Shown here: positions 4,472 to 53,458 of the stretch, piece after piece
Layout: each line of letters opens with the position of its first letter
How positions within the stretch are numbered: the stretch's first letter is position 1
Assembly (NCBI GenBank): GCA_023432985.1
Contig: JAEZEQ010000040.1
Span: forward strand, 9,190-73,189
Direction: 5' to 3'
DNA: 64,000 nucleotides
DNA from: Bacteroidota bacterium
GTDB lineage: Bacteria > Bacteroidota > Bacteroidia > CAIKAF01
Notes under the pieces: generated by a model
What the model saw: only the letters and a program-made list of their open reading frames with translations
What the model was told of the DNA's origin: nothing
Database searches by the model: none
Translations under genes and position numbers: made by a program

Positions 4472-6769
4472 TTGCATGCTATGATTTCTCGTGATACAAA
4501 TTGGCTCAATGAACTGAATGATATTCAGCGCGAAGCCGTAACTCATATAGACGGACCATCTATGATTATTGCCGGCGCAGGTTCCGGTAAGACCCGCGTT
4601 ATAACCTATAGAATCGCTTATCTCCTCAGTCAAGGTGTCGACGCTTTTCAAATTCTTTCGCTCACTTTTACCAATAAAGCTGCCCGCGAAATGAAAGAAC
4701 GTATCGTGAAAATTACCGGTGAAAAGGAGGCTAAAAATTTATGGATGGGTACTTTTCACTCTATTTTTTCCCGTATTCTGCGCGTGGAAGCGGAAAAAAT
4801 TAATTACAATACCAATTTCACTATCTACGATACGGAAGACAGCAGAAGCCTTATCCGATCTATTCTTAAAGAAATGAACCTCGATGATAAGGTCTATAAA
4901 CCCAATCAGGTTCAAGCCCGCATCTCGGAGTCGAAAAATAAACTGATCTCCGCTACCGCATACCTACAAAATGAACATATTATTGCGGATGACTATGCCA
5001 ATGGTAAACCCAAATTAGGCGAAATTTATATGGCATACCAAAAAAGATTATTCAAATCTTCGGCCATGGATTTCGATGATCTGCTCTTTAAAACATACGA
5101 ACTATTCCACCGATTCCCCGAAGTACTCCATAAATACCAACAGCGTTTCAAATATATTATGGTCGATGAGTACCAAGACACAAACTTTGCTCAGTATATT
5201 ATCATTAAACTCCTCGCCGACCTTCACCATAACCTGTGTGTAGTGGGCGATGACGCTCAAAGTATTTACGCCTTCCGCGGAGCTAGTATCGAAAATATCC
5301 TGAATTTCGAAAAGGATTATCCCAATGTGCGAACCTTTAAACTCGAACAAAACTACCGAAGTACACAACATATCGTAGAAGGTGCAAATACCATCATCCG
5401 AAATAATAAATTCCAACTCAAGAAAAATGTATTTACGGAAAATGAATCGGGAGATAAAATTGCTCTCTATAAAGCCCAAAGCGATAATGAAGAAGGACGC
5501 CTTGTGGCTCAACTGATTTTTGAGGAAAAGAATAATACGCATTGCCCCAATAAGGATTTTGCCATTCTCTATCGCACCAACTCTCAAAGCCGTAGCATGG
5601 AGGAAGCTCTCCGTAAAATGAATATCCCCTACAGGGTTTACGGTGGAGTAAGCTTTTACCAACGCAAGGAAATTAAAGACCTTTTGTCTTATTTCAGATT
5701 GGCGCTGAATTTTAAAGATGAAGAAGCGCTGAAAAGGGTTATCAACTACCCCACTCGAGGCATAGGAAATACTACGGTCGAAAAATTAACCGTATTGGCC
5801 GATAAACATAATACGGATATGTTTACTGTCGCCGCGAATATTCAACGCGTCCCCGAAAATGGGATCAATGCCGGCACTCAGTCTAAACTGAATCAATTCA
5901 CTACGATGATTCAAAGTTTTGCCATTCAGGTCAAAAATCGAAATGCCTACGATGCCGCACAAACTATAGCTTCCGAAAGTAAAATCCTCAAAGATCTCTT
6001 CGACGATAAAACCCCCGAAGGTGTTAGTCGCTACGAAAATATAATGGAATTACTCAATGGTATTAAGGAGTTTAGCGAAACCCCAAATGAAGACGGCGAA
6101 CTCCAAACCCTGGATAAATTTATGGCCGATGTAGCCCTGCTTACGGACGCCGATAAGGACGATGATAACGACGATAAGGTAAGCCTTATGACCATCCACA
6201 GTGCGAAAGGACTCGAATTCCCCCACGTCTTTGTTGTGGGTATGGAAGAAAATCTATTCCCGTCTCAACTTTCTTCAACCTCGCGAAGCGAACTCGAAGA
6301 GGAAAGACGCCTGTTTTATGTCGCCCTCACACGCGCCATGACCAAGGTAAACCTTTCTTATGCCCAATCCAGATACCGCTGGGGGCAATTATCTTTTACC
6401 GAACCCAGCCGCTTTTTGTCGGAACTTGATCCCAAATTGCTCGATGTGAAATTTGCTCAACATGGTCCCAAAAAGGATAACTCAAATCTCGACCAAATGC
6501 GCGAAAATTGGGGCGGAAAAATGAGCTATAACTACTCTAAACCTCCACAATCTTCTACGCCCAAAGCAGACGAGAAATCTGATTTTATCCCCGATAATCC
6601 CAAAATTTTCAAAGAAGGAATGGTCGTACTCCACCAACGATTCGGCAAAGGAACCATTCTCTCGCTCGAAGGTTCGGGTAATGATCGATTGGCTACTATC
6701 CGCTTCGATAATGCCGGCGAGAAAAAATTATTGCTCAAATTTGCAAAGCTTAAATCTTTTGAATCTTAA
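4472..6769 (+). CDS. uvrD: ATP-dependent DNA helicase, UvrD/PcrA/Rep family (superfamily 1A)
   Basis: Walker A motif AGAGSGKTRV near the N-terminus (helicase motif I) and a TFH motif further on (TFHSIFSRIL), with helicase motifs running to HSAKGLEFPHVFV. The C-terminal 100 aa form a small extra domain. The true start may be the internal Met at 4481. Confidence 0.85.
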   Translation: MHAMISRDTNWLNELNDIQREAVTHIDGPSMIIAGAGSGKTRVITYRIAYLLSQGVDAFQILSLTFTNKAAREMKERIVKITGEKEAKNLWMGTFHSIFSRILRVEAEKINYNTNFTIYDTEDSRSLIRSILKEMNLDDKVYKPNQVQARISESKNKLISATAYLQNEHIIADDYANGKPKLGEIYMAYQKRLFKSSAMDFDDLLFKTYELFHRFPEVLHKYQQRFKYIMVDEYQDTNFAQYIIIKLLADLHHNLCVVGDDAQSIYAFRGASIENILNFEKDYPNVRTFKLEQNYRSTQHIVEGANTIIRNNKFQLKKNVFTENESGDKIALYKAQSDNEEGRLVAQLIFEEKNNTHCPNKDFAILYRTNSQSRSMEEALRKMNIPYRVYGGVSFYQRKEIKDLLSYFRLALNFKDEEALKRVINYPTRGIGNTTVEKLTVLADKHNTDMFTVAANIQRVPENGINAGTQSKLNQFTTMIQSFAIQVKNRNAYDAAQTIASESKILKDLFDDKTPEGVSRYENIMELLNGIKEFSETPNEDGELQTLDKFMADVALLTDADKDDDNDDKVSLMTIHSAKGLEFPHVFVVGMEENLFPSQLSSTSRSELEEERRLFYVALTRAMTKVNLSYAQSRYRWGQLSFTEPSRFLSELDPKLLDVKFAQHGPKKDNSNLDQMRENWGGKMSYNYSKPPQSSTPKADEKSDFIPDNPKIFKEGMVVLHQRFGKGTILSLEGSGNDRLATIRFDNAGEKKLLLKFAKLKSFES

Positions 6770-15282: not shown

Positions 15283-18200
15283 ATGAAAAACGCAATGCTT
15301 ATATACTTGTTATTGTTTCTGTCTCTTGGCGGCAATACACAAATCTGGGAAGATTTCTCCGATGGCGATTTTCATTCCGATTATGTGTGGAGCGGAACAG
15401 ATTCTGATTTTGTGGTGAATATGCAAAAGCAATTGCAATTGTATAAAAACACGGCAGGCATTTCTTATCTCTCTACCTATTTACCATATGCTTCAGTCGA
15501 TACTATGGTATATGAGTTCTGGTATAAACTCGATTTCGACCCAAGTTCCAATAATCAGTTTCGTTTTTATTTAAATGCCAATCAACCCGATTTAACTTCG
15601 ACCAGCCTCAAGGCTTGCTATATACAAATTGGCGAAAATGGGCAACAGGATGCGATTCGATTATATCAACAAAATGGTTTATCACACACCCTTATAGGAT
15701 CAGGTTCGGCAGGCAGCATCGCAAGTTCCGTTCACCCCAAACGCATACGAGTAGTACGGACCGCCGCCGGCCTGATTTTTATTTCTTTAGCCCACACAGG
15801 TGCATCCTTTTTTCAATATGAATTTCAGGCTGTGCTGACTGATTCCTTATATCCTTACTTAGGCATATGGGTTAAAAACACCCAAAGTCAGTCCCAACAT
15901 TTCTATTTCGATGATATCATAGTCAGCCCTTTCAATCCCGACACCACAGCCCCGCGCCTCATGCATGCCCGGGCATCCGGAAATAAGAAAGTTTCTTTGC
16001 AGTTCAATGAAGCCTTATCCTGGGTCGAGGCTCATAGCTTACAAAACTATATTTATGCAGGCAATTATTTTCCCATTCAAATCGACCTGAATCCCGATCG
16101 CGACATGGTTGAATTGACCTATCCCGACATCTGGTTAGATCATGAAAATATATCCATACATCTGAAAAATATAGCAGATACAGCAGGAAATTATATGGCC
16201 GATACAAGTCTGCAGCTCACCTATTATCAACCTCAGGCATACGACTTAATCATAAGCGAATTTCTTGCGGATCCAACTCCTACGATTGGATTACCCAATA
16301 CAGAATTTGTAGAAATATACAATCGAATGAATTACCCGATTGAATGCTCGGCCTATAAATTATGTGTCAACCAAAACTGCATTAAGCTGCCCGCATACAG
16401 CATTGCCCCAAAATCGTACGCATTAATTATTCCGGAAAACTATGTCAATTATTTTCCGGGATTACCTCTATTGCCGGTGTCGACTTTACCAACTATAACT
16501 AATGGAGGGGCTGTTATAGAAATAAGAGATACCGGCAATTTTTCAATACACAAAATAGAATTTTCTACCACATGGTATAAAGATCCGATGAAGGATGATG
16601 GTGGCTTTACGCTGGAGAAAATAAATCCGGATGAGTTGTGTGGCACAGAAGACCAATACCTCGCAAGTAAGAGTTATACCGGCGGCACACCGGGTTATGT
16701 GAATTCCGTACACGATTCGAGCCCCATCCCTTTTCGGTTTCGTTATATCCTGATTGATGCCCAAAAAATCTTATTTATTTTTAATAAACGCTTTACATCA
16801 TCCGATTGGAATGTGCAGGATTTCAAATCCCAAAACCAACCCATTTTTCAAAGCTTGCACTTCCTTTCGGATGATTCTATTTTGGCTGAGTGGATTTATC
16901 CCCTTGCGCAAAATCAATCCCTGCACCTTAGCGTAGAATTCAATGGCCTGGATTGTGCATCGATGCCATTACAACTCGATACGCAACTGTATATTCAAAA
17001 CTATGAAGCGAAATATGGCGATTTAATCATAAGCGAAATAATGGCTAATCCTTCCGGAAACACGAATTATCCTTTCGAGTTCATAGAAATATATAATGCT
17101 TCATCTTTAACATTGGAATTGGATCAATTTGCCCTGCATATAAATTCCTCTTCTTATGCTTTACCTCAATACCATATTTCACCCGGCGAATTTGTAGTAA
17201 TATGCGGACAACTCAACGCCATCCCCCCATTTCTCTACTGCAAATTACCAAGCTTATCGAACGAAAACGGAATATATAATTTAATTCACCTGAACGGTCA
17301 AATTATACATCATGCGCAATACCGCAATTCTTATTTCGAAGATGCTCTAAAAAAAAACGGAGGTTATTCTTTAGAGTTAACCGACCTGAATGCCATTTGT
17401 CAGCAAAAAAACAATTGGAGGGCGAGCGCAGACCCCAGAGGTGCCAGTCCGGCCGAAGCAAATTCCCATTCTACCCAACTGGAGCCAGTAGCCTCACCCA
17501 AAGCTATATACAGAGGCATACAACAAGACAGTATTATTTTATACTTCGATCAGGCGATAAATCCCACCTATATACAAGAGGCCGAAATACAAACTACGCA
17601 GGGCAAATTAAACGGGGAATGGATCTCGGATCGAGGAAATCTGAAAAAGGTCTATTTTCGAAGTCAGCAAGGGATACCATGGGGACAATCATTGGAAATT
17701 TCAAAGCTCAAGAATTGCGAAACCGGAGAAATAAGTGCGACTGAAATTCGACTTCCGCAGAAGTCTGCACCAAGCGAAAAAGGCATACAAATAAACGAAA
17801 TCCTATTTCATCCCGAAAGCGGGAAATCGAAATACGTCGAGTTTCTGAATACAGGCGAGGAGGCTGTAAACATCGAAACGCTCTATTTAGGCCGTTACGA
17901 TACACTTTTGTCCATGTATAGCTCGGGCTCAAAACCATTTCCTGAAAATTTATGGTTATTACCCGGCGAAATCATTTGTCTGAGTACAGATCCGGCGGAA
18001 GTTTCAGAAAGCTTTATCGGCTCGAATCCATCCCACATTTTGTATAGCGGCAAGCTGGATTTGCCGGGGAGTTCGGGAGGCATTTTGCGCCTGCAAAACA
18101 GCAAAAATGAGGAAGTAGACATAGCAGCCGTCTTGCCGGAATGGCATAGCACTTTTCTTACAGAAAAGAAAGGCGTAGCCCTTGAGCGAATTGGGCTAAA

Positions 18201-18621
18201 AAGGGAGGGCCTTTCGAGATACAGCTGGTTATCTGCTGCGGCAAATATGGGTTATGGAACGCCGGGTAATGAAAATTCGCAATGGGGAAATTTCGGTGAG
18301 GCAGAGAAAATACTCGAACTAAACACGCCAATTTTTTCACCCGATATGGATGGATATATGGATTGGGTGGAAATACGCGGAAAAATGCCGGAGTCCGGTT
18401 TGCGTGCCAGCCTATTTATTATAAATGAATCCGGGCAAATTATACGCTCATTAATGCAAAACGAAATTTGTGGCTCAGAGCTTTCCTTTATTTGGGATGG
18501 TGGAAATAGCCTCGGTCAAAAAGTACCCATAGGTATTTATAAAATCTATTTAAAAGCGCTCAATGCAACCGGAAAAAGTTGGCAAGATTATAGGGCAATC
18601 GTCGTGGCCGTGAAAAAATAA
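15283..18621 (+). CDS. large secreted protein with three lamin-tail-like (LTD) domains and a T9SS type-B C-terminal sorting domain
   Basis: Three ISEF/ISEI/INEIL...EF(V/I)EIYN motifs (ISEFLADPTP..EFVEIYN, ISEIMANPSG..EFIEIYNAS, INEILFHPESGKSKYVEFLNTG). The C-terminus FSPDMDGYMDWVEI...FIWDGGNSLGQKVPIGIYKIYLKA resembles the gliding-motility type-B CTD (FSPNGDGIND...WDGxxNGxxxxxGTYFY). Confidence 0.6.
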   Translation: MKNAMLIYLLLFLSLGGNTQIWEDFSDGDFHSDYVWSGTDSDFVVNMQKQLQLYKNTAGISYLSTYLPYASVDTMVYEFWYKLDFDPSSNNQFRFYLNANQPDLTSTSLKACYIQIGENGQQDAIRLYQQNGLSHTLIGSGSAGSIASSVHPKRIRVVRTAAGLIFISLAHTGASFFQYEFQAVLTDSLYPYLGIWVKNTQSQSQHFYFDDIIVSPFNPDTTAPRLMHARASGNKKVSLQFNEALSWVEAHSLQNYIYAGNYFPIQIDLNPDRDMVELTYPDIWLDHENISIHLKNIADTAGNYMADTSLQLTYYQPQAYDLIISEFLADPTPTIGLPNTEFVEIYNRMNYPIECSAYKLCVNQNCIKLPAYSIAPKSYALIIPENYVNYFPGLPLLPVSTLPTITNGGAVIEIRDTGNFSIHKIEFSTTWYKDPMKDDGGFTLEKINPDELCGTEDQYLASKSYTGGTPGYVNSVHDSSPIPFRFRYILIDAQKILFIFNKRFTSSDWNVQDFKSQNQPIFQSLHFLSDDSILAEWIYPLAQNQSLHLSVEFNGLDCASMPLQLDTQLYIQNYEAKYGDLIISEIMANPSGNTNYPFEFIEIYNASSLTLELDQFALHINSSSYALPQYHISPGEFVVICGQLNAIPPFLYCKLPSLSNENGIYNLIHLNGQIIHHAQYRNSYFEDALKKNGGYSLELTDLNAICQQKNNWRASADPRGASPAEANSHSTQLEPVASPKAIYRGIQQDSIILYFDQAINPTYIQEAEIQTTQGKLNGEWISDRGNLKKVYFRSQQGIPWGQSLEISKLKNCETGEISATEIRLPQKSAPSEKGIQINEILFHPESGKSKYVEFLNTGEEAVNIETLYLGRYDTLLSMYSSGSKPFPENLWLLPGEIICLSTDPAEVSESFIGSNPSHILYSGKLDLPGSSGGILRLQNSKNEEVDIAAVLPEWHSTFLTEKKGVALERIGLKREGLSRYSWLSAAANMGYGTPGNENSQWGNFGEAEKILELNTPIFSPDMDGYMDWVEIRGKMPESGLRASLFIINESGQIIRSLMQNEICGSELSFIWDGGNSLGQKVPIGIYKIYLKALNATGKSWQDYRAIVVAVKK

Positions 18622-48244: not shown

Positions 48245-49186
48245 ATGAAGGTTTACCGGGATTTAAAAGAATTTACAAAATTAGACAATGCGGTTGTGAG
48301 CACCGGCACCTTCGACGGGGTACACAATGGGCATAAAATTATTTTACAGCGTTTATGCAAAACGGCCGAACAAACCGGTGGTGAAAGTGTATTAATTACC
48401 TTCGATCCACATCCGCGCCTCGTTCTGAATCCCACAGGAAATACTGACCTAAAACTACTCACTACGGTAGACGAAAAAATCGCATTATTGGAAGCCCAAG
48501 GCATACAACATTTGCTGATTATTCCATTCACTCCGGAGTTTGCACAAACCAGCGGAGAAGCTTATATAAAAGATATTTTGGTCGACACCATTGGGGTTAA
48601 AAAGCTGGTGATTGGATACGACCATCGATTTGGAAAAGGGCGTGGGGGAAGTTTTAAAGAACTGGTCGAATTGGCTCCTACATACGGGTTTGAAGTGGAA
48701 GAAATTCCGGCCGTTGAAATCGACGACTCCGCCATCAGTTCTACAAAAATTCGAAAAGCCATAGCAGCCGGCGATATGGAAGGCGCAAACGAAAAACTGG
48801 GCTACCCTTATGCCCTCTCCGGAAGGGTTGTAAAAGGACACCAATTAGGACGCACCATACAATTCCCAACCGCCAATATTGAACCCGAAGACAGCCTGAA
48901 ACTCATACCGGCTATTGGGGTATATGCCGCAACGGTAGAACTGAACAACAAGGAATATTATGCTATGGTGAATATAGGAGTTCGCCCCACTTTCGGTGGA
49001 AATAAATTGAAAATTGAAACACATATTATTAACTTTGAGGAGGACATATATCATAAAACCATTTGCATTCGTTTTAGATCCAGAATTCGTCCCGAAATAA
49101 AATTTAATTCAGCCGATGATCTCAAAATTCAACTTCAAAAAGATAAAAATACCATACTTCGTATTCTTGCTGATATGGGTTGCTAA
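48245..49186 (+). CDS. ribF: bifunctional riboflavin kinase / FMN adenylyltransferase RibF
   Basis: N-terminal FAD synthetase region (GTFDGVHNGH) and C-terminal riboflavin kinase region (GRVVKGHQLGRTIQFPTAN). Confidence 0.85.
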   Translation: MKVYRDLKEFTKLDNAVVSTGTFDGVHNGHKIILQRLCKTAEQTGGESVLITFDPHPRLVLNPTGNTDLKLLTTVDEKIALLEAQGIQHLLIIPFTPEFAQTSGEAYIKDILVDTIGVKKLVIGYDHRFGKGRGGSFKELVELAPTYGFEVEEIPAVEIDDSAISSTKIRKAIAAGDMEGANEKLGYPYALSGRVVKGHQLGRTIQFPTANIEPEDSLKLIPAIGVYAATVELNNKEYYAMVNIGVRPTFGGNKLKIETHIINFEEDIYHKTICIRFRSRIRPEIKFNSADDLKIQLQKDKNTILRILADMGC

Positions 49187-49751
49187 TGCCTGCGTTTCAG
49201 CCCCGGCAGCTAAGGCTCAGGAATGGCAGGATGTGCCGGTTTATACAGATTTAAAGGAGGCTTTAAAAAATCCCAAATCCGTTAAAAGACTCGATCTTTC
49301 CAAACAAAAACTAAGTCGTATTCCTTCCGAAGTTTTCACTTCTTTTCCGAATATGTACGAGCTTGTGCTTTCAAAAAACAAACTCAAAACCCTACCCGAC
49401 GAATTGGGAAATCTTCGAAATTTGCGCATTCTGAAACTGGATCGGAATAAATTCGAAAGTCTGCCCGAAACTATAGGCAGACTCGAAAAGCTGGAAGTTT
49501 TAGACGTTAACCGAAGCAATTTATATTACCTGCCTGAATCTATAGGCAATTGTCATTCTCTCGAACGTATTATTGCATGGGATACCAATTTGATTACCTT
49601 ACCCAATTCGCTCAAAAAATGCCATTCTTTAGGTTATATAGACCTTAGAAATATAGAATTTAGTTCCTCTCTTCAGGAAGAATTAAAAACTATGCTGGCC
49701 GGTGTCAAAATTGAATTCACCAATAGCTGCAATTGTGGACCCAATCCTTAA
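49116..49751 (+). CDS. leucine-rich repeat (LRR) protein, secreted
   Basis: About 7 LRRs of the 23-aa LxxLxLxxNxLxxLPxxIGxLxx type (LVLSKNKLKTLPDELGNLRNLRILKLDRNKFESLPETIGRLEKLEVLDV...). N-terminal signal-like segment. Overlaps ribF by 71 bp in another frame, so the true start may be an internal alternative codon. Confidence 0.55.
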   Translation: MISKFNFKKIKIPYFVFLLIWVANACVSAPAAKAQEWQDVPVYTDLKEALKNPKSVKRLDLSKQKLSRIPSEVFTSFPNMYELVLSKNKLKTLPDELGNLRNLRILKLDRNKFESLPETIGRLEKLEVLDVNRSNLYYLPESIGNCHSLERIIAWDTNLITLPNSLKKCHSLGYIDLRNIEFSSSLQEELKTMLAGVKIEFTNSCNCGPNP

Positions 49752-52135
49752 GGAGCTTCCAATCGTATGGTCACCCCTCCGTTGAAATGTATGCCTGCCA
49801 TAGGATATACATAATTCACATCGGTACGTTCTCCACCCCAATAATAGCCGTAAGTATAGCCATTGGGTGCATAAGATGTATTGGTGACATTAAAGGCATT
49901 TGCAAAAAAGCTGATTCCCGCCCAATCTTTCACTTTTAAGTGATAACTCAGACGCAGATCTGCCGTAAAAAAGCCCTTTAAGCTGCGGCTTATTTGTTGG
50001 GTATTATCCAGATATTGGCGACTAACGCCTTTACCTGTTATATCAATAGCAAATCCCTTCACAGGCACTATGTTGATTTGGAATCCGCCCACCCAGCTTG
50101 GCGAAAACGCAATACTGCTGTTTTTATATATGGTTTCTAATTGTCCCCCATTATCATAATCGTCTATATATTCCACAAACTCTTTAATTCGGTTCTGACT
50201 AAATGCCAGGTTTGCCCCTATGCTGATTACCTTATGCAATCTGGCTTTGGCGGTTAACTCTATACCGGCACGGTAACTCACAGGCACATTTATGCGCGTA
50301 TAGGCACCCACGTCGTTGATTTTTCCGGTTTGTATCAATTGGTTCTTATAATGCATATAATACAAAGTGGCCGAAGTAGATACTTTCCCTTTTCTGAACT
50401 CGTAACCCAACTCGGTATCATACAAAGTTTCGGGAGTGGGAACCTGCGCCAGGCCTGCTTCCAAATCATCGCGATTGGGTTCTTTATTTCCCATTGCAAA
50501 AGAGGCAAATACGGTATGAGCCGGATTTATTCGGTATAATATTCCCGCTTTAGGGTTTACAAAATTCCAATGGAAATCGCCCTTTAGGGTGGGGTTTACT
50601 CTAAAACCATGTACTTTATAGTTCACATATCTATATTGCAAATCGGCAAAAACATACATTTCTTTCCATACTCTGTAATTCAATTTGGCATATATATTGG
50701 CCTCATTTTTAAATGCCGGAAAATAGTAATACCGGTGCGATACAGAATCCATACCCTTAGATGCCCAAATAACATCTCCATAATGTCGGCCATCGTAAGC
50801 AAGCCAAGCTCCGCCGGCTTTCAGGTTTACCCTGTTTTTCTCGTATTGAACCGAAAAAGTAGCCCCATAAAAATAATTATCCAGCGCCAATTGTCGAATT
50901 ATATCGCTTTGATAGTTCGTATCCTGTCCCGAAATCTGTGGTGGCAAAGCATAATCGGCATAATCTACATCGGCTTTATACTGCTCATAATGACCTTTAC
51001 CACGTGTAAGGAAAGTGGCTGCCTGCAGGTTTATATTTTCATTAAAACGATGAGTGAAAAATAAACGATAATAGTCCTGACGATAATTATCTGTTTCGTT
51101 GGCGTAAGGCGAACCGGGTTTTTCCATTCCCGATTCATTATAGGTTGGGATAGAATCGACCAAAGCCTGGGGGACTCCATTCCATGCCTGATAAGTTTTT
51201 TCTTTACCGGTAAACACATTAAAGCGAAGGCTGGTTTTCTTTCCCAGATAGTTAACTGAACCAAAGAGTGATTGAAGATTAGAGAAGGCTCTATCTATAT
51301 ATCCGTCTGAGGAAATTTTACTGGCACGTACATCTACCGTAAAACGATTTGCCAGTAGGCCCGAACCTCCGCTAAGGGCAACTTTATAGGTATTAAAACT
51401 TCCATAGGAAGCACTGATTTCGCCATATGGTTTTAGATTTTGTTGTTGGGTTTGCAGGTTGATTCCCGCTCCAAATGCGCCTCCACCGGTGGTGGATGTA
51501 CCCACCCCTCTTTGGATTTGAATGCTTTGTGCACTCCCGGCTATATCAGGTGTGTTTACCCAAAAAACGGCTTGCGATTCCGGGTCATTTACAGGTATAC
51601 CGTCGAAGGTCACATTGATGCGTGTAATATCACTACCCCTTATTCTCAATCCGGTATAACCAACCCCATTTCCTGCATCCGAAAAAACAACCGTACCCGG
51701 CGTTTGATCGAGCAAGACAGGCAAATCTTTTCCCGTATTCAACGGGGCTATATCTTTTGCCGTCCACTCTGTTTTCACAAAAGGATCGTTCTCGCCCACG
51801 CGCAAGGGGATTACGTGAATGTCGACCTTATTGAGCAATAATGGGGAAAATTGAAGTAGAATTTCTTTATCTATTCCCATTTTCAAGGTATCCTTTTTGG
51901 GCAAATAACCGAGACTACTCAGCTCTACAATCACCATGTTCTGAATCGATTGAATAGCAAATCGCCCTTCCTTATCGCTTGATGTTCCCGTAAAAGAGTC
52001 GAGCACCTTTACCGAAGCACCAACAATAGGTTCCTTACTTTTTTGGTCTAATATCCGACCTGTAAATTGATTTTGTGCCCATACATTCAGCGCACCAAAT
52101 GAGAATAAAATCCCAAAGCATACAGCATGTTTCAT
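49748..52135 (-). CDS. TonB-dependent outer-membrane receptor (carboxypeptidase-regulatory-like N-domain, plug, 22-strand barrel); predicted thiamine/thiamine-precursor importer
   Basis: Signal peptide. The segment GRILDQKSKEPIVGASVKV...TSSDKEGRFAI is a CarbopepD_reg-like domain, followed by a plug and a long beta-barrel. The C-terminal residue is not aromatic. It lies immediately downstream of the TPP riboswitch. Confidence 0.8.
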   Translation of the reverse strand: MKHAVCFGILFSFGALNVWAQNQFTGRILDQKSKEPIVGASVKVLDSFTGTSSDKEGRFAIQSIQNMVIVELSSLGYLPKKDTLKMGIDKEILLQFSPLLLNKVDIHVIPLRVGENDPFVKTEWTAKDIAPLNTGKDLPVLLDQTPGTVVFSDAGNGVGYTGLRIRGSDITRINVTFDGIPVNDPESQAVFWVNTPDIAGSAQSIQIQRGVGTSTTGGGAFGAGINLQTQQQNLKPYGEISASYGSFNTYKVALSGGSGLLANRFTVDVRASKISSDGYIDRAFSNLQSLFGSVNYLGKKTSLRFNVFTGKEKTYQAWNGVPQALVDSIPTYNESGMEKPGSPYANETDNYRQDYYRLFFTHRFNENINLQAATFLTRGKGHYEQYKADVDYADYALPPQISGQDTNYQSDIIRQLALDNYFYGATFSVQYEKNRVNLKAGGAWLAYDGRHYGDVIWASKGMDSVSHRYYYFPAFKNEANIYAKLNYRVWKEMYVFADLQYRYVNYKVHGFRVNPTLKGDFHWNFVNPKAGILYRINPAHTVFASFAMGNKEPNRDDLEAGLAQVPTPETLYDTELGYEFRKGKVSTSATLYYMHYKNQLIQTGKINDVGAYTRINVPVSYRAGIELTAKARLHKVISIGANLAFSQNRIKEFVEYIDDYDNGGQLETIYKNSSIAFSPSWVGGFQINIVPVKGFAIDITGKGVSRQYLDNTQQISRSLKGFFTADLRLSYHLKVKDWAGISFFANAFNVTNTSYAPNGYTYGYYWGGERTDVNYVYPMAGIHFNGGVTIRLEAP

Positions 52136-52189
52136 TTCCTGTCTGTTTTTTGTTCAACAATAAATAAATCGACAGGAAACACTTGGTGT

Positions 52190-52270
52190 ACCTGCCATTC
52201 CTACGGCGGCATTATCCGCATCAGGTTTTACGGGTGTATTCTCAGCCTTTTAAAGCACCCCGTGGCAAGA
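52190..52270 (-). promoter_or_regulatory. TPP (thiamine pyrophosphate) riboswitch, THI element, with RBS-sequestering expression platform
   Basis: Minus-strand RNA is UGCCACGGGGUGCUUUAAAAGGCUGAGAAUACACCCGUAAAACCUGAUGCGGAUAAUGCCGCCGUAGGAAUGGCA. This matches the Rfam TPP consensus blocks GGGGUGC, GGCUGAGA, ACCC and AACCUGAUCNGGAUAAUGCCNGCGNAGGGAA. The P1 pairing is UGCCA/UGGCA. Downstream, UUUCCUGUC (52179-52171) pairs with GACAGGAAA (52144-52136), which occludes the AGGAAA RBS just before the AUG at 52135-52133. Confidence 0.85.
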
Positions 52271-52366
52271 CGAATAGAAATTCGTAATGATGAAACAAAG
52301 GTATAGAGCCTTTTTGATTTTGCAAATTTTTGATAAAAAATGGGATGCTCTATCTATACTAAACGA

Positions 52367-53458
52367 CTATCTCTGGGCTGTGCGCGCTAAATATAAGCCT
52401 ACAAAAAAGAAGAAAACATTGGGCAACCATGCGGCAATAAAGGGCGACATGGTTCCATTTACGGCATAGGTAACAGCCACTTTATCGAAAAATATATACG
52501 AAAATCCGAGTCCGATTCCCATAGCAATATTCAGACCTATACCTCCCCTCACCTTTCGTCCGGCAAGCGGTACAGCAATCAGGGTAAGAATAATTGTAGA
52601 AAAAGGATTACTCCATCTCTTATATTTCTCGATTAGATACAAGTCGATATAACTACTCCCCGAAGCTTTTTCATTTTCTACAAATTCATTGAGCTGAAAA
52701 TAATCCATAGTCGATATATCTCTATTCATCACCTGAAATATTTCGGGCGAAAAAGGCAATAAGGTATCGACCTGTGTAGCTGTATAAATACGATCTCCAT
52801 TGTCGGCTGCTCGCCTTACCATATAATCGACCAGCGTCCATCGCTGATGCAAGGTATCGTAAATCACGGAATAAGCCATGAGTTTGCTTATCATGTTTTT
52901 GCCTTCAAATTGTTCTATAGACAATTTTTGTCCGTTCATGTTCTCATTATTCCAATACTCGATATACAAAAACTGTCCCGGTGAAATTTGCCTGTGCAGA
53001 TTACGTGGATTATAGGTTCCGTGTCCGAAATATTCTCTTTCGAATGCCGATTTTTTCTTATTTGATGTAGGAACCACAAAATTGCCGATAATGGCCAAAA
53101 ATATGGCAACAAATATGGCCGATCCCATAAAAGGCGCCAAGAAACGTCTATAACTTACACCCGATGCCAGGATCGCAACAATTTCGCTGCGCGCAGCCAT
53201 TCGGGAGGTGAAATAAATTACCGAAATAAATGCAAATAATGGAGCAAAAAGGGATGCAAAATAGGGTATAAAATTGGCATAATAAACCAAAACAATTTCT
53301 TTCAAAGGTGGCACTTTCCCTCGTCTGCCTAGGAAATCATCCACTTTTTCGGAGATATCGAAAACTACAGCGATAGCGATAATTAAGGTCAGACTTACAA
53401 AAAAAGTTACCAGATATTTCTTTGCTATGTAGCGGTCTATAGTTTTCATTGAATGCAC
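52367..53458 (-). CDS. LptF/LptG family LPS-export permease
   Basis: YjgP/YjgQ-type N-terminus (IDRYIAKKYLVTFFVSLTLIIAIAV), a periplasmic beta-jellyroll region between TM3 and TM4, and six TM segments. 363 aa. Confidence 0.75.
   Translation of the reverse strand: MHSMKTIDRYIAKKYLVTFFVSLTLIIAIAVVFDISEKVDDFLGRRGKVPPLKEIVLVYYANFIPYFASLFAPLFAFISVIYFTSRMAARSEIVAILASGVSYRRFLAPFMGSAIFVAIFLAIIGNFVVPTSNKKKSAFEREYFGHGTYNPRNLHRQISPGQFLYIEYWNNENMNGQKLSIEQFEGKNMISKLMAYSVIYDTLHQRWTLVDYMVRRAADNGDRIYTATQVDTLLPFSPEIFQVMNRDISTMDYFQLNEFVENEKASGSSYIDLYLIEKYKRWSNPFSTIILTLIAVPLAGRKVRGGIGLNIAMGIGLGFSYIFFDKVAVTYAVNGTMSPFIAAWLPNVFFFFVGLYLARTAQR

Follow-up and report, generated by a model that had tools for sequence, protein, structure and literature searches.

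Does a TonB-dependent receptor gene in an uncultured, Flavobacteriales-like lineage stand under the control of a TPP riboswitch, how might such an element act on the gene, and which compound would the receptor bring into the cell? These questions arise from the 5' leader of a single gene in the 64-kb stretch of DNA analyzed here (the window), for which an original prediction had proposed a TPP riboswitch with translational control. With a probability of about three in four, we favor the interpretation that a TPP riboswitch with a thiM-like expression platform, transcribed from its own promoter, gates translation of a monocistronic receptor, the likely substrate of which is thiamine or a related compound. 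The features from which the argument starts are the following.

49748..52135, minus strand: TonB-dependent receptor gene, 795 aa (Pfam PF13715, PF07715, PF00593)
52191..52269, minus strand: TPP aptamer, bounded by the two strands of the extended P1 (RF00059 75.2 bits; covariance model R1 84.9 bits)
49116..49751, plus strand: LRR-protein gene, convergent and overlapping the receptor stop codon, with ribF beyond
52367..53458, minus strand: LptF/LptG permease gene, upstream of the receptor and co-directional

Identity of the TPP aptamer

The check that had been proposed along with the riboswitch call was a search with the Rfam model RF00059 (TPP). Run against the whole 64-kb window (Rfam 15), this model matches the minus strand at 52272..52181 with 75.2 bits, over its gathering score of 54.3 (E 5.3e-13), and it is the sole Rfam family above its gathering score in the 64 kb. 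The alignment is full-length, covering model positions 1-105, and the P1-P5 architecture with the CUGAGA, ACCC, ACCUGAU and GUAGG(G/A)A blocks is present when the element is aligned to the consensus structure. All of the conserved THI blocks listed in the original prediction, namely GGGGUGC, GGCUGAGA, ACCC and AACCUGAUGCGGAUAAUGCCGCCGUAGGAAUGG, can be read on the minus strand. Its P1 of UGCCA (52267-52263) with UGGCA (52197-52193) was likewise found as described, and can be extended to 7 bp (CUUGCCA, 52269-52263, with UGGCAGG, 52197-52191). A permissive Rfam scan of 52000-52450 also returned RAGATH-13 (26.5 bits vs 80), SpF10 and PART1 near the leader, all far below threshold, which we dismiss as chance matches.

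Full-length homologues of the receptor number in the thousands in Bacteroidota, and from these we fetched 92 related loci. Eighty of them derive from reference genomes, mostly of Chitinophagaceae and some of Sphingobacteriales and Flavobacteriales (46-53% receptor identity), and 12 are closer metagenomic relatives (51-70%); the closer clade includes a MAG labelled 'Flavobacteriales bacterium' (GCA_022402535.1). RF00059 scored above threshold upstream of the receptor in seven of ten loci tested with Rfam. A covariance model (R1), built from the Rfam matches in the relatives' loci, was then used to scan 88 loci, 86 of which have an aptamer directly ahead of the receptor; the contigs of the two loci that gave no match (L068 and L073) start within or just before the gene. 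With L089, which was added by hand alignment, the number of fetched loci with an aptamer ahead of the orthologous receptor rises to 87 of 92.

Covariation across orthologous loci had been named as a second test, and the pairings are maintained there. Standard pairs occupy 93.4% of the pair cells among 86 distinct family aptamers, changes on both sides occur in 8 of 16 base pairs, and P2, P3, P4 and P5 covary. The observed pairing and covariation values were reached in 0 of 500 shuffles, and slid controls were 22-58% paired. P1 shows a swap from A-U to U-A between the window and L088-L092. The RF00059 score and the covariation in relatives both support the original call, and at the level of sequence we regard the element as confirmed, that is, as a genuine TPP riboswitch aptamer that would be expected to bind TPP.

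The original prediction further described the aptamer as unusually compact, with about 75 nt and a 3-bp P3. The length holds, as 75 nt separate P1 from P1, and the P3 segment of 10 nt is indeed the minimum among the 86 family aptamers (median 21.5). P3 is, however, effectively 4 bp with a 4-nt loop, it lies only 3 nt below the Rfam consensus P3, and a 10-nt P3 is common to four other loci, having been kept in L082-L084 and having arisen separately in L071. The optional P3a is missing throughout the family. A P3 segment this short could be taken to mean that the aptamer is a decaying relic, in which the L5-P3 tertiary contact is weakened by the minimal P3, and that its promoter drives constitutive expression of the receptor. 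We find this hardly credible: no ligand-contacting consensus block is disrupted, the Rfam score exceeds its threshold by 21 bits, the short P3 has been retained in one group of relatives and has a separate origin in another, and the segments of the expression platform described below are invariant while the receptors diverge to 51% identity.

A thiM-like expression platform predicted between aptamer and start codon

The Rfam match ends 45 nt upstream of the gene, and the aptamer-to-AUG distance amounts to 45-57 nt. This interval and its borders hold three complementary segments: GGCAGG (52196-52191), overlapping with the 3' strand of P1, CCUGUC (52176-52171), and GACAGG (52143-52138), which ends 2 nt before the AUG in the window. 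The structures that they can form are as follows.

52171..52196, minus strand: predicted anti-sequestor hairpin H, GGCAGG:CCUGUC around an inner stem ACAC/GUGU
52144..52170, minus strand: U/A-rich linker GAUUUAUUUAUUGUUGAACAAAAAACA, loop of the predicted sequestor helix and U-rich in relatives
52133..52181, minus strand: predicted sequestor helix S of 11 bp, pairing 52181-52171 (UGUUUCCUGUC) with 52143-52133 (GACAGGAAAUG), in the MFE fold of the full leader

A 9-bp helix in the 3' half of the leader (UUUCCUGUC with GACAGGAAA) had already been proposed. It is part of the MFE fold, but its real length there is 11 bp and it takes in all three AUG bases (52135-52133); in the full leader fold, the unpaired probability is at most 0.12 at positions -8..+2. 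The original prediction had missed the anti-sequestor (GGCAGG with CCUGUC), as well as the promoter and the 5' hairpin to which we return below.

We compared the leader with those of 11 relatives whose receptors are 51-70% identical to that of the window. GGCAGG and CCUGUC do not vary among 11 leaders, and the third segment is GACAGG, UACAGG or GAUGGG, of which the GAUGGG variant retains all six pairs with CCUGUC via two wobbles. In ten of the 11 relatives, 0-4 nt separate this third segment (GACAGG or the wobble-compatible GAUGGG) from the AUG, and in L089 it overlaps the annotated start. Hairpin H alone folds with -10.4 kcal/mol in the window and with -10.4 to -13.6 kcal/mol in 11 leaders, and its inner stem varies in sequence among the relatives with the pairing retained. 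The sequestor comprises 5-11 consecutive bp across the relatives, with flanks that co-change in places (UUU:AAA, AUC:GAU, UUUU:AAAA). Its 6-bp core pairs in 59 of 60 cells, and GACAGG turns into GAUGGG only by wobble-preserving changes. No fully compensatory change was seen in this core among the 11 leaders, and sequestor covariation does not rise above shuffles (67 of 500 reach the score, in a small alignment that was built around the proposed pairing). It is conservation, register and folding that argue for the sequestor helix. A helix by the start codon that can occlude initiation, as originally envisaged, is kept in the relatives.

The two alternatives were also apparent when the leaders were folded in silico. 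All 11 leaders adopt the sequestor as MFE structure when the P1 3' strand is withheld, which mimics a P1 locked by TPP. Once this strand is supplied, nine of the 11 adopt the anti-sequestor as MFE structure instead, the exceptions being the window and L081, in which the sequestor stays. The folds of these 11 leaders thus display a thiM-type platform with three mutually exclusive segments. For the full leader of the window in the ligand-free state, the OFF fold has -42.6 kcal/mol compared to -38.0 kcal/mol with the anti-sequestor enforced. As the OFF fold is favored even when no ligand is bound, we rejected a thermodynamic two-state picture for the window, which leaves either a kinetic switch or an inaccurate energy model. 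The MFE structure of a 105-nt nascent transcript is the anti-sequestor with P1 open. That the nascent transcript folds into the anti-sequestor while the full leader prefers the sequestor points to a kinetic, co-transcriptional decision.

What the sequestor helix would bury is a separate matter. The original prediction took AGGAAA for a ribosome-binding site, yet ribosomes of Bacteroidia do not read Shine-Dalgarno (SD) sequences (PMC7797042, PMC6847099), and initiation in this class is tuned by the structure around the start codon (PMC6847099, PMC7797042). SD enrichment was not found in the window, where an SD-core 4-mer occurs at -18..-4 in 4 of 50 ORFs compared to 5 of 50 in a control region. 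The conserved block is moreover GACAGG, which, at 0-4 nt from the AUG, is too close to serve as SD and is exactly complementary to CCUGUC. It is therefore very unlikely that AGGAAA acts as a Shine-Dalgarno site, and the buried element is, as judged from the modelled folds, probably the start codon and its immediate surroundings.

A proposed mechanism of kinetic translational control

At high TPP, the aptamer would bind TPP and P1 (CUUGCCA/UGGCAGG) would be locked. CCUGUC, left without its partner in the aptamer, would then pair with GACAGG, giving rise to the 11-bp helix over the AUG that would block translation. Such an effect is to be expected of a helix that covers the AUG, because Bacteroidia initiate translation without SD pairing and need an unstructured start. 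At low TPP, P1 would be open during RNA synthesis and GGCAGG would capture CCUGUC in the local hairpin, so that the start region would be single-stranded and the receptor would be made. The choice between the two states might be kinetic and co-transcriptional: if P1 is locked before CCUGUC emerges from the polymerase, the sequestor would form later, and if not, the local hairpin would win. Our results demonstrate the identity of the aptamer, its conservation and covariation ahead of this receptor family, the conservation of the three complementary segments and the in-silico folds, whereas TPP binding, the sign of the control and the level at which it acts, kinetic switching and the substrate are inferred.

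The same three-part logic, with a P1 3' strand, a middle segment and an initiation region, is found in Escherichia coli thiM. In the thiM model, the middle segment pairs with the P1-overlapping strand when ligand is lacking, and with the initiation region when ligand closes P1. The two leaders differ in what is hidden, which is the Shine-Dalgarno sequence in thiM, whereas in the window the helix would cover the AUG together with the nucleotides that immediately precede it. The sequestor loop of the window is 27 nt long and U/A-rich, and an inserted hairpin extends it to as much as about 60 nt in relatives. With promoter, 5' hairpin, aptamer, anti-sequestor and AUG-covering sequestor all delineated, the leader could offer a convenient model for riboswitch gating of translation in bacteria that initiate without SD sequences.

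Translational repression by TPP, as suggested in the original prediction, is the most likely logic and agrees with the measured behavior of the Bacteroides thetaiotaomicron OMthi riboswitch, which represses a translational fusion while the mRNA level is unchanged (10.1101/867226). The spacing of the window counts against a translational reading, since a rule of thumb assigns aptamers located more than 40 nt from the AUG to the transcriptional class (10.1101/867226), and by this rule a distance of 45-57 nt would be transcriptional. One could accordingly propose transcriptional or mixed control, in which the hairpin at 52196-52171 and the U-rich tail at 52170-52155 constitute a real intrinsic terminator. 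The 5' arm of this terminator is the P1 3' strand, so that it would form in the TPP-free state and TPP would activate read-through (an ON switch); in a variant of this proposal, the terminator would cause constitutive partial attenuation, with translational regulation on top.

Sequence composition downstream of hairpin H is in keeping with a terminator. In 11 of 11 clade leaders, the hairpin (-10.4 to -13.6 kcal/mol) is followed within 0-3 nt by a 16-nt tract with 7-10 U, mostly 9-10, in which a UUUAUUUAUUAAC-like motif recurs, compared to a T content of 28% in the genome; the equivalent hairpin of L030 is followed by eight consecutive U. We know of no bacterial TPP ON switch, however, and termination when TPP is lacking combined with sequestration of the start codon when it is present would leave the gene off under all conditions. 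The U tract of the window is interrupted and offset by 2 nt, a consensus terminator scan did not flag it, and the conserved GACAGG beside the AUG would have no role if control were exerted by termination. A/U-rich leaders are, in addition, normal in Bacteroidia (PMC6847099). We therefore regard a terminator as distinctly improbable, and it is more likely that the U-rich tract is an A/U-rich, unstructured landing region. As such, the linker between hairpin H and GACAGG could be the place where ribosomes land.

A putative promoter and a conserved hairpin at the 5' end of the leader

Three further features were recognized in the region upstream of the aptamer.

52323..52326, minus strand: putative -33-like element TTTG (consensus match only), 19 nt upstream of the -7 box
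52296..52303, minus strand: putative -7 box TACCTTTG, fitting the Bacteroidota consensus TAnnTTTG
52270..52285, minus strand: predicted 5' leader hairpin ACGAA-UUUCUA-UUCGU, directly abutting P1

TTTG and TAnnTTTG are the -33 and -7 consensus motifs of Bacteroidota promoters. UAnnUUUG is kept in ten of ten clade leaders at a near-constant distance of 32-38 nt from P2, and TTTG recurs at a similar distance in several clade members. Across the wider family, 71 of 84 loci have TAnnTTTG in the 120 nt that precede the aptamer, compared to 5.5% of random 126-nt windows. A scan for sigma-70 consensus promoters and terminators, whose scope does not include Bacteroidota promoters, gave no minus-strand match in the leader. 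The presence of a putative Bacteroidota-type promoter of its own suggests that the unit is transcribed alone and not by read-through from lptG. A hairpin also folds at the 5' position of the leader in ten of ten clade leaders, with stem sequences that differ between them (in relatives, ACGAC/GUCGU, ACGGCAGA/UCUGUCGU, UUCAAC/GUUGAA and CAUCCGGC/GCCGGAUG).

The receptor gene is apparently monocistronic. The LptF/LptG gene had been described as a divergent neighbor, which is incorrect, as it lies on the same minus strand as the receptor gene and is co-directional with it. On the other side, the order of receptor, LRR protein and ribF is kept in the closer clade even where the upstream genes differ.

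The receptor and its missing neighbors

The receptor possesses an N-terminal signal peptide and CarbopepD_reg_2 (carboxypeptidase-regulatory-like), Plug (E 1.6e-8) and TonB_dep_Rec_b-barrel (E 3e-27) domains. Its AlphaFold2 model has a mean pLDDT of 77.8, with values of about 85-90 in the barrel and low confidence for residues 98-113, which lead from the N-terminal domain to the plug. Foldseek searches against the PDB returned TonB-dependent transporters with E values down to 1e-39 at 12-16% identity, including FhuA, FecA, BtuB and PqqU with E values between 1e-29 and 1e-39. Pfam domains and the AlphaFold2/Foldseek results agree on the organization of a TonB-dependent transporter, in which an N-terminal plug sits within a 22-strand beta-barrel. 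In a phmmer search of the receptor against PDB sequences no match was obtained, and no specific NCBIfam family claims the protein. Membership in SusC/RagA was rejected, as TIGR04056 scores 38.7 bits vs a cutoff of 368 and covers the N-terminal domain only, and the neighbor is an LRR protein and not SusD-like.

PqqU/YncD is among the best structural matches (PDB 9c4o and 6v81; E values of 1e-39 and 2.5e-35, target-based TM-scores of 0.80-0.81). The compound taken up by PqqU is a small organic cofactor and not an iron chelate. Identity to the receptor of the window is only about 15%, and the N-terminal extension domain has no counterpart in PqqU/YncD. Fold similarity among TonB-dependent transporters says nothing on the substrate.

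Genes that could act together with the receptor were sought by Pfam. In agreement with the original prediction, there is no thi gene and no gene for a known thiamine inner-membrane transporter beside the receptor, and no thiamine biosynthesis, salvage or known transport gene was recognized among the ORFs of at least 100 aa in the 64 kb. A Vut_1/YhhQ-family transporter is encoded 30 kb away and was considered as a partner, but this family presumably carries queuosine precursors and not thiamine. A gene for PnuC or thiamine pyrophosphokinase (TPK) was not found beside the receptor, neither in the window nor in the related loci. Nearly all 92 related loci lack a recognizable same-strand partner gene of the receptor, and the downstream same-strand ORFs that occur in a few of them have no Pfam match. 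The pnuT and tnr3 partners of the OMthi/omr1 arrangement were thus not seen in the window or beside the receptor in the related loci. Their absence at this position is not decisive, because the rest of the genome lies outside the window and B. thetaiotaomicron also splits these genes from its receptor (PMC5613172). The locus does stand alone, as the term orphan locus in the original prediction implied, but this is nothing special: it is the rule among the 92 loci and is known for Bacteroides OMthi (PMC5613172).

Comparison with OMthi and omr1 and the probable substrate

That TonB-dependent receptors under TPP riboswitch control exist in Bacteroidota (OMthi, omr1) was correctly pointed out in the original prediction. 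With a TPP riboswitch directly before a TonB-dependent receptor gene in 87 of 92 related loci, the arrangement is that of OMthi/omr1, and the view that the locus is a further example of it is well supported; existing knowledge of TPP riboswitches or of OMthi/omr1 is unchanged by the locus. In gut Bacteroidetes, 85 of 97 riboswitches associated with transport precede OMthi (10.1101/867226). Most of these bacteria possess OMthi-pnuT-tnr3 operons, while B. thetaiotaomicron splits OMthi from pnuT-tnr3 (PMC5613172), and a biosynthesis mutant requires more thiamine once OMthi is lost (PMC5613172). In contrast to the operons that prevail in the gut, such an operon was found in 0 of the 92 loci of the receptor family studied here.

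The closest parallel, as likened by arrangement and not by sequence, is the B. thetaiotaomicron OMthi gene BT2390 with riboswitch BtTPP2, in which a TPP riboswitch likewise directly precedes a standalone receptor. Fewer than 5 nt separate the BtTPP2 aptamer from the start codon, whereas 45-57 nt and a separate anti-sequestor/sequestor platform intervene in the window. BT2390 is also shorter, with about 741 aa according to published coordinates compared to the 795 aa of the receptor in the window, which has an N-terminal carboxypeptidase-regulatory-like domain. The gene omr1, named for a thiamin-regulated outer-membrane receptor, occurs with a nearby TPP riboswitch in Flavobacteriales MAGs and was described as a 'potential B1' transporter (PMC10881298), and its specificity was described as unclear (PMC12442306, Fig. 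2 legend). It represents the same pairing of a TonB-dependent receptor with a TPP riboswitch, and its substrate was likewise deduced from the riboswitch. Reports on omr1 are gene-marker surveys, which do not cover leader anatomy, promoter or platform, and omr1 is likened to the locus in the window by arrangement.

By analogy to what is thought for OMthi/omr1, thiamine or a related compound is the most likely cargo that the receptor carries across the outer membrane, as suggested only by the riboswitch and the OMthi precedent. A riboswitch links the gene only to the thiamine pathway, though, and the receptor might instead take up a precursor or vitamer, such as HMP, AmMP, a thiazole precursor or phosphorylated thiamine, as a member of a family that is distinct from OMthi but is controlled by the riboswitch as proposed. 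This would fit the unclear specificity of omr1 in metagenomic work (PMC12442306), the fact that pnuT/tnr3 do not accompany the receptor in the 92 loci, unlike in the gut OMthi-pnuT-tnr3 operon (PMC5613172), and the lack of a match to a specific NCBIfam family. Yet the one riboswitch-controlled receptor that has been tested genetically behaves as a thiamine importer (PMC5613172), OMthi is separated from pnuT in B. thetaiotaomicron as well, and nothing points positively to a precursor. We thus deem precursor import possible but doubtful.

A step further would be to propose that the family is a non-OMthi lineage, which imports another thiamine-related compound and hands it to a new inner-membrane partner, and, separately, that the leader, in view of its conserved terminator-like anti-sequestor, exerts control at two levels. 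We consider these ideas unlikely; we are not aware of a TPP riboswitch in Bacteroidota for which two-level control has been reported.

Under the preferred interpretation, in which TPP gates synthesis of an importer of thiamine or a related compound, the locus would provide a conserved example of riboswitch-controlled outer-membrane acquisition of vitamin B1 in an uncultured Flavobacteriales-like lineage. A TPP aptamer precedes this receptor family, whose members have about 790 aa and an N-terminal carboxypeptidase-regulatory-like domain, in essentially every locus examined, in Chitinophagales, Sphingobacteriales and Flavobacteriales. As the family is tied to the TPP aptamer almost without exception, it could serve as a reliable genomic marker for the use of exogenous B1 or its vitamers by environmental Bacteroidota.

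Expression platforms of the related loci

The receptor loci taken from reference genomes (L001-L080) are mostly from Chitinophagaceae, and the expression platform of most of these Chitinophagaceae relatives differs from that of the window (e.g., L024 5864-5920 and L013 1866-1917). Most of their leaders lack a sequestor beside the AUG, such as the helix predicted to bury the start codon of the window receptor, and have an A-rich unstructured run 5' of the AUG. C/U-rich segments (CCUCUCC, UUCCCUGUUCCC, and UUUCCCUCUU) that are complementary to the aptamer 3' AGGGAAGG are likewise found in most leaders of this set.

In L072, which derives from a single Chitinophagaceae MAG, about 290 nt of tandem repeats (342-632), with units like GGATTAAATGGATTTCACTGATTGGTGGTTCATTCTTGATCGCGGATTAAT, separate the aptamer from the receptor start codon. 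In L065, 338 nt (5644-5983) lie between the aptamer and the first start codon that is in frame with the main match; this interval holds an AUG that opens a reading frame resembling the N-terminal domain, apparently in another frame. Such a layout could reflect a frameshift or an error of assembly, or the gene could be a pseudogene. L063 contains a second, weak match to a TPP covariance model built from aptamers of related loci (6157-6245; 26.4 bits, E 1e-4). It is located approximately 2 kb downstream of the receptor stop codon (at about 4159) and is probably due to chance.

A further structured element abuts P1, the closing helix of the aptamer, in the window and its closer metagenomic relatives:

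52270-52285 (-), hairpin immediately 5' of P1; at equivalent positions in L082-L092

The hairpin is present in 10/10 clade leaders, and the sequence of its stem varies among them. Several relatives allow an extension of the hairpin base onto part of the P1 5' strand, e.g., by pairing of GCA with UGC in L090. Provided that the hairpin base does pair with this strand, each of the two strands of P1 would have an alternative pairing partner.

Genomic context of the receptor gene

48245-49751 (+), convergent pair ribF -> LRR-protein gene, ending at or overlapping the receptor stop codon
19376-20050 (+), Vut_1 gene (PF02592, YhhQ-type 'putative vitamin uptake transporter'), overlapping the truB end
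15283-18621 (+), 1112-aa ORF, sole Pfam match Lamin Tail Domain (residues 576-643)

The convergent ribF/LRR-protein layout also occurs in L083, L086, and L088-L092 and is retained down to 51% receptor identity despite differing upstream genes. Chitinophagaceae instead have convergent rhodanese, PASTA-domain, and D-Ala-D-Ala ligase genes 3' of the receptor. No functional link is apparent.

By family, we take the Vut_1 gene product to be a queuosine-precursor transporter; no riboswitch was detected near this gene. The 1112-aa ORF is without annotation outside its Lamin Tail Domain.

SD-core motifs were not enriched 5' of start codons across all window ORF starts (4/50 versus 5/50 in the control region). 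This result, a GC content of 41%, TAnnTTTG promoters, and receptors with a carboxypeptidase-regulatory domain jointly assign the window to Bacteroidota. Among named relatives, a 'Flavobacteriales bacterium' MAG is the closest for the receptor locus.
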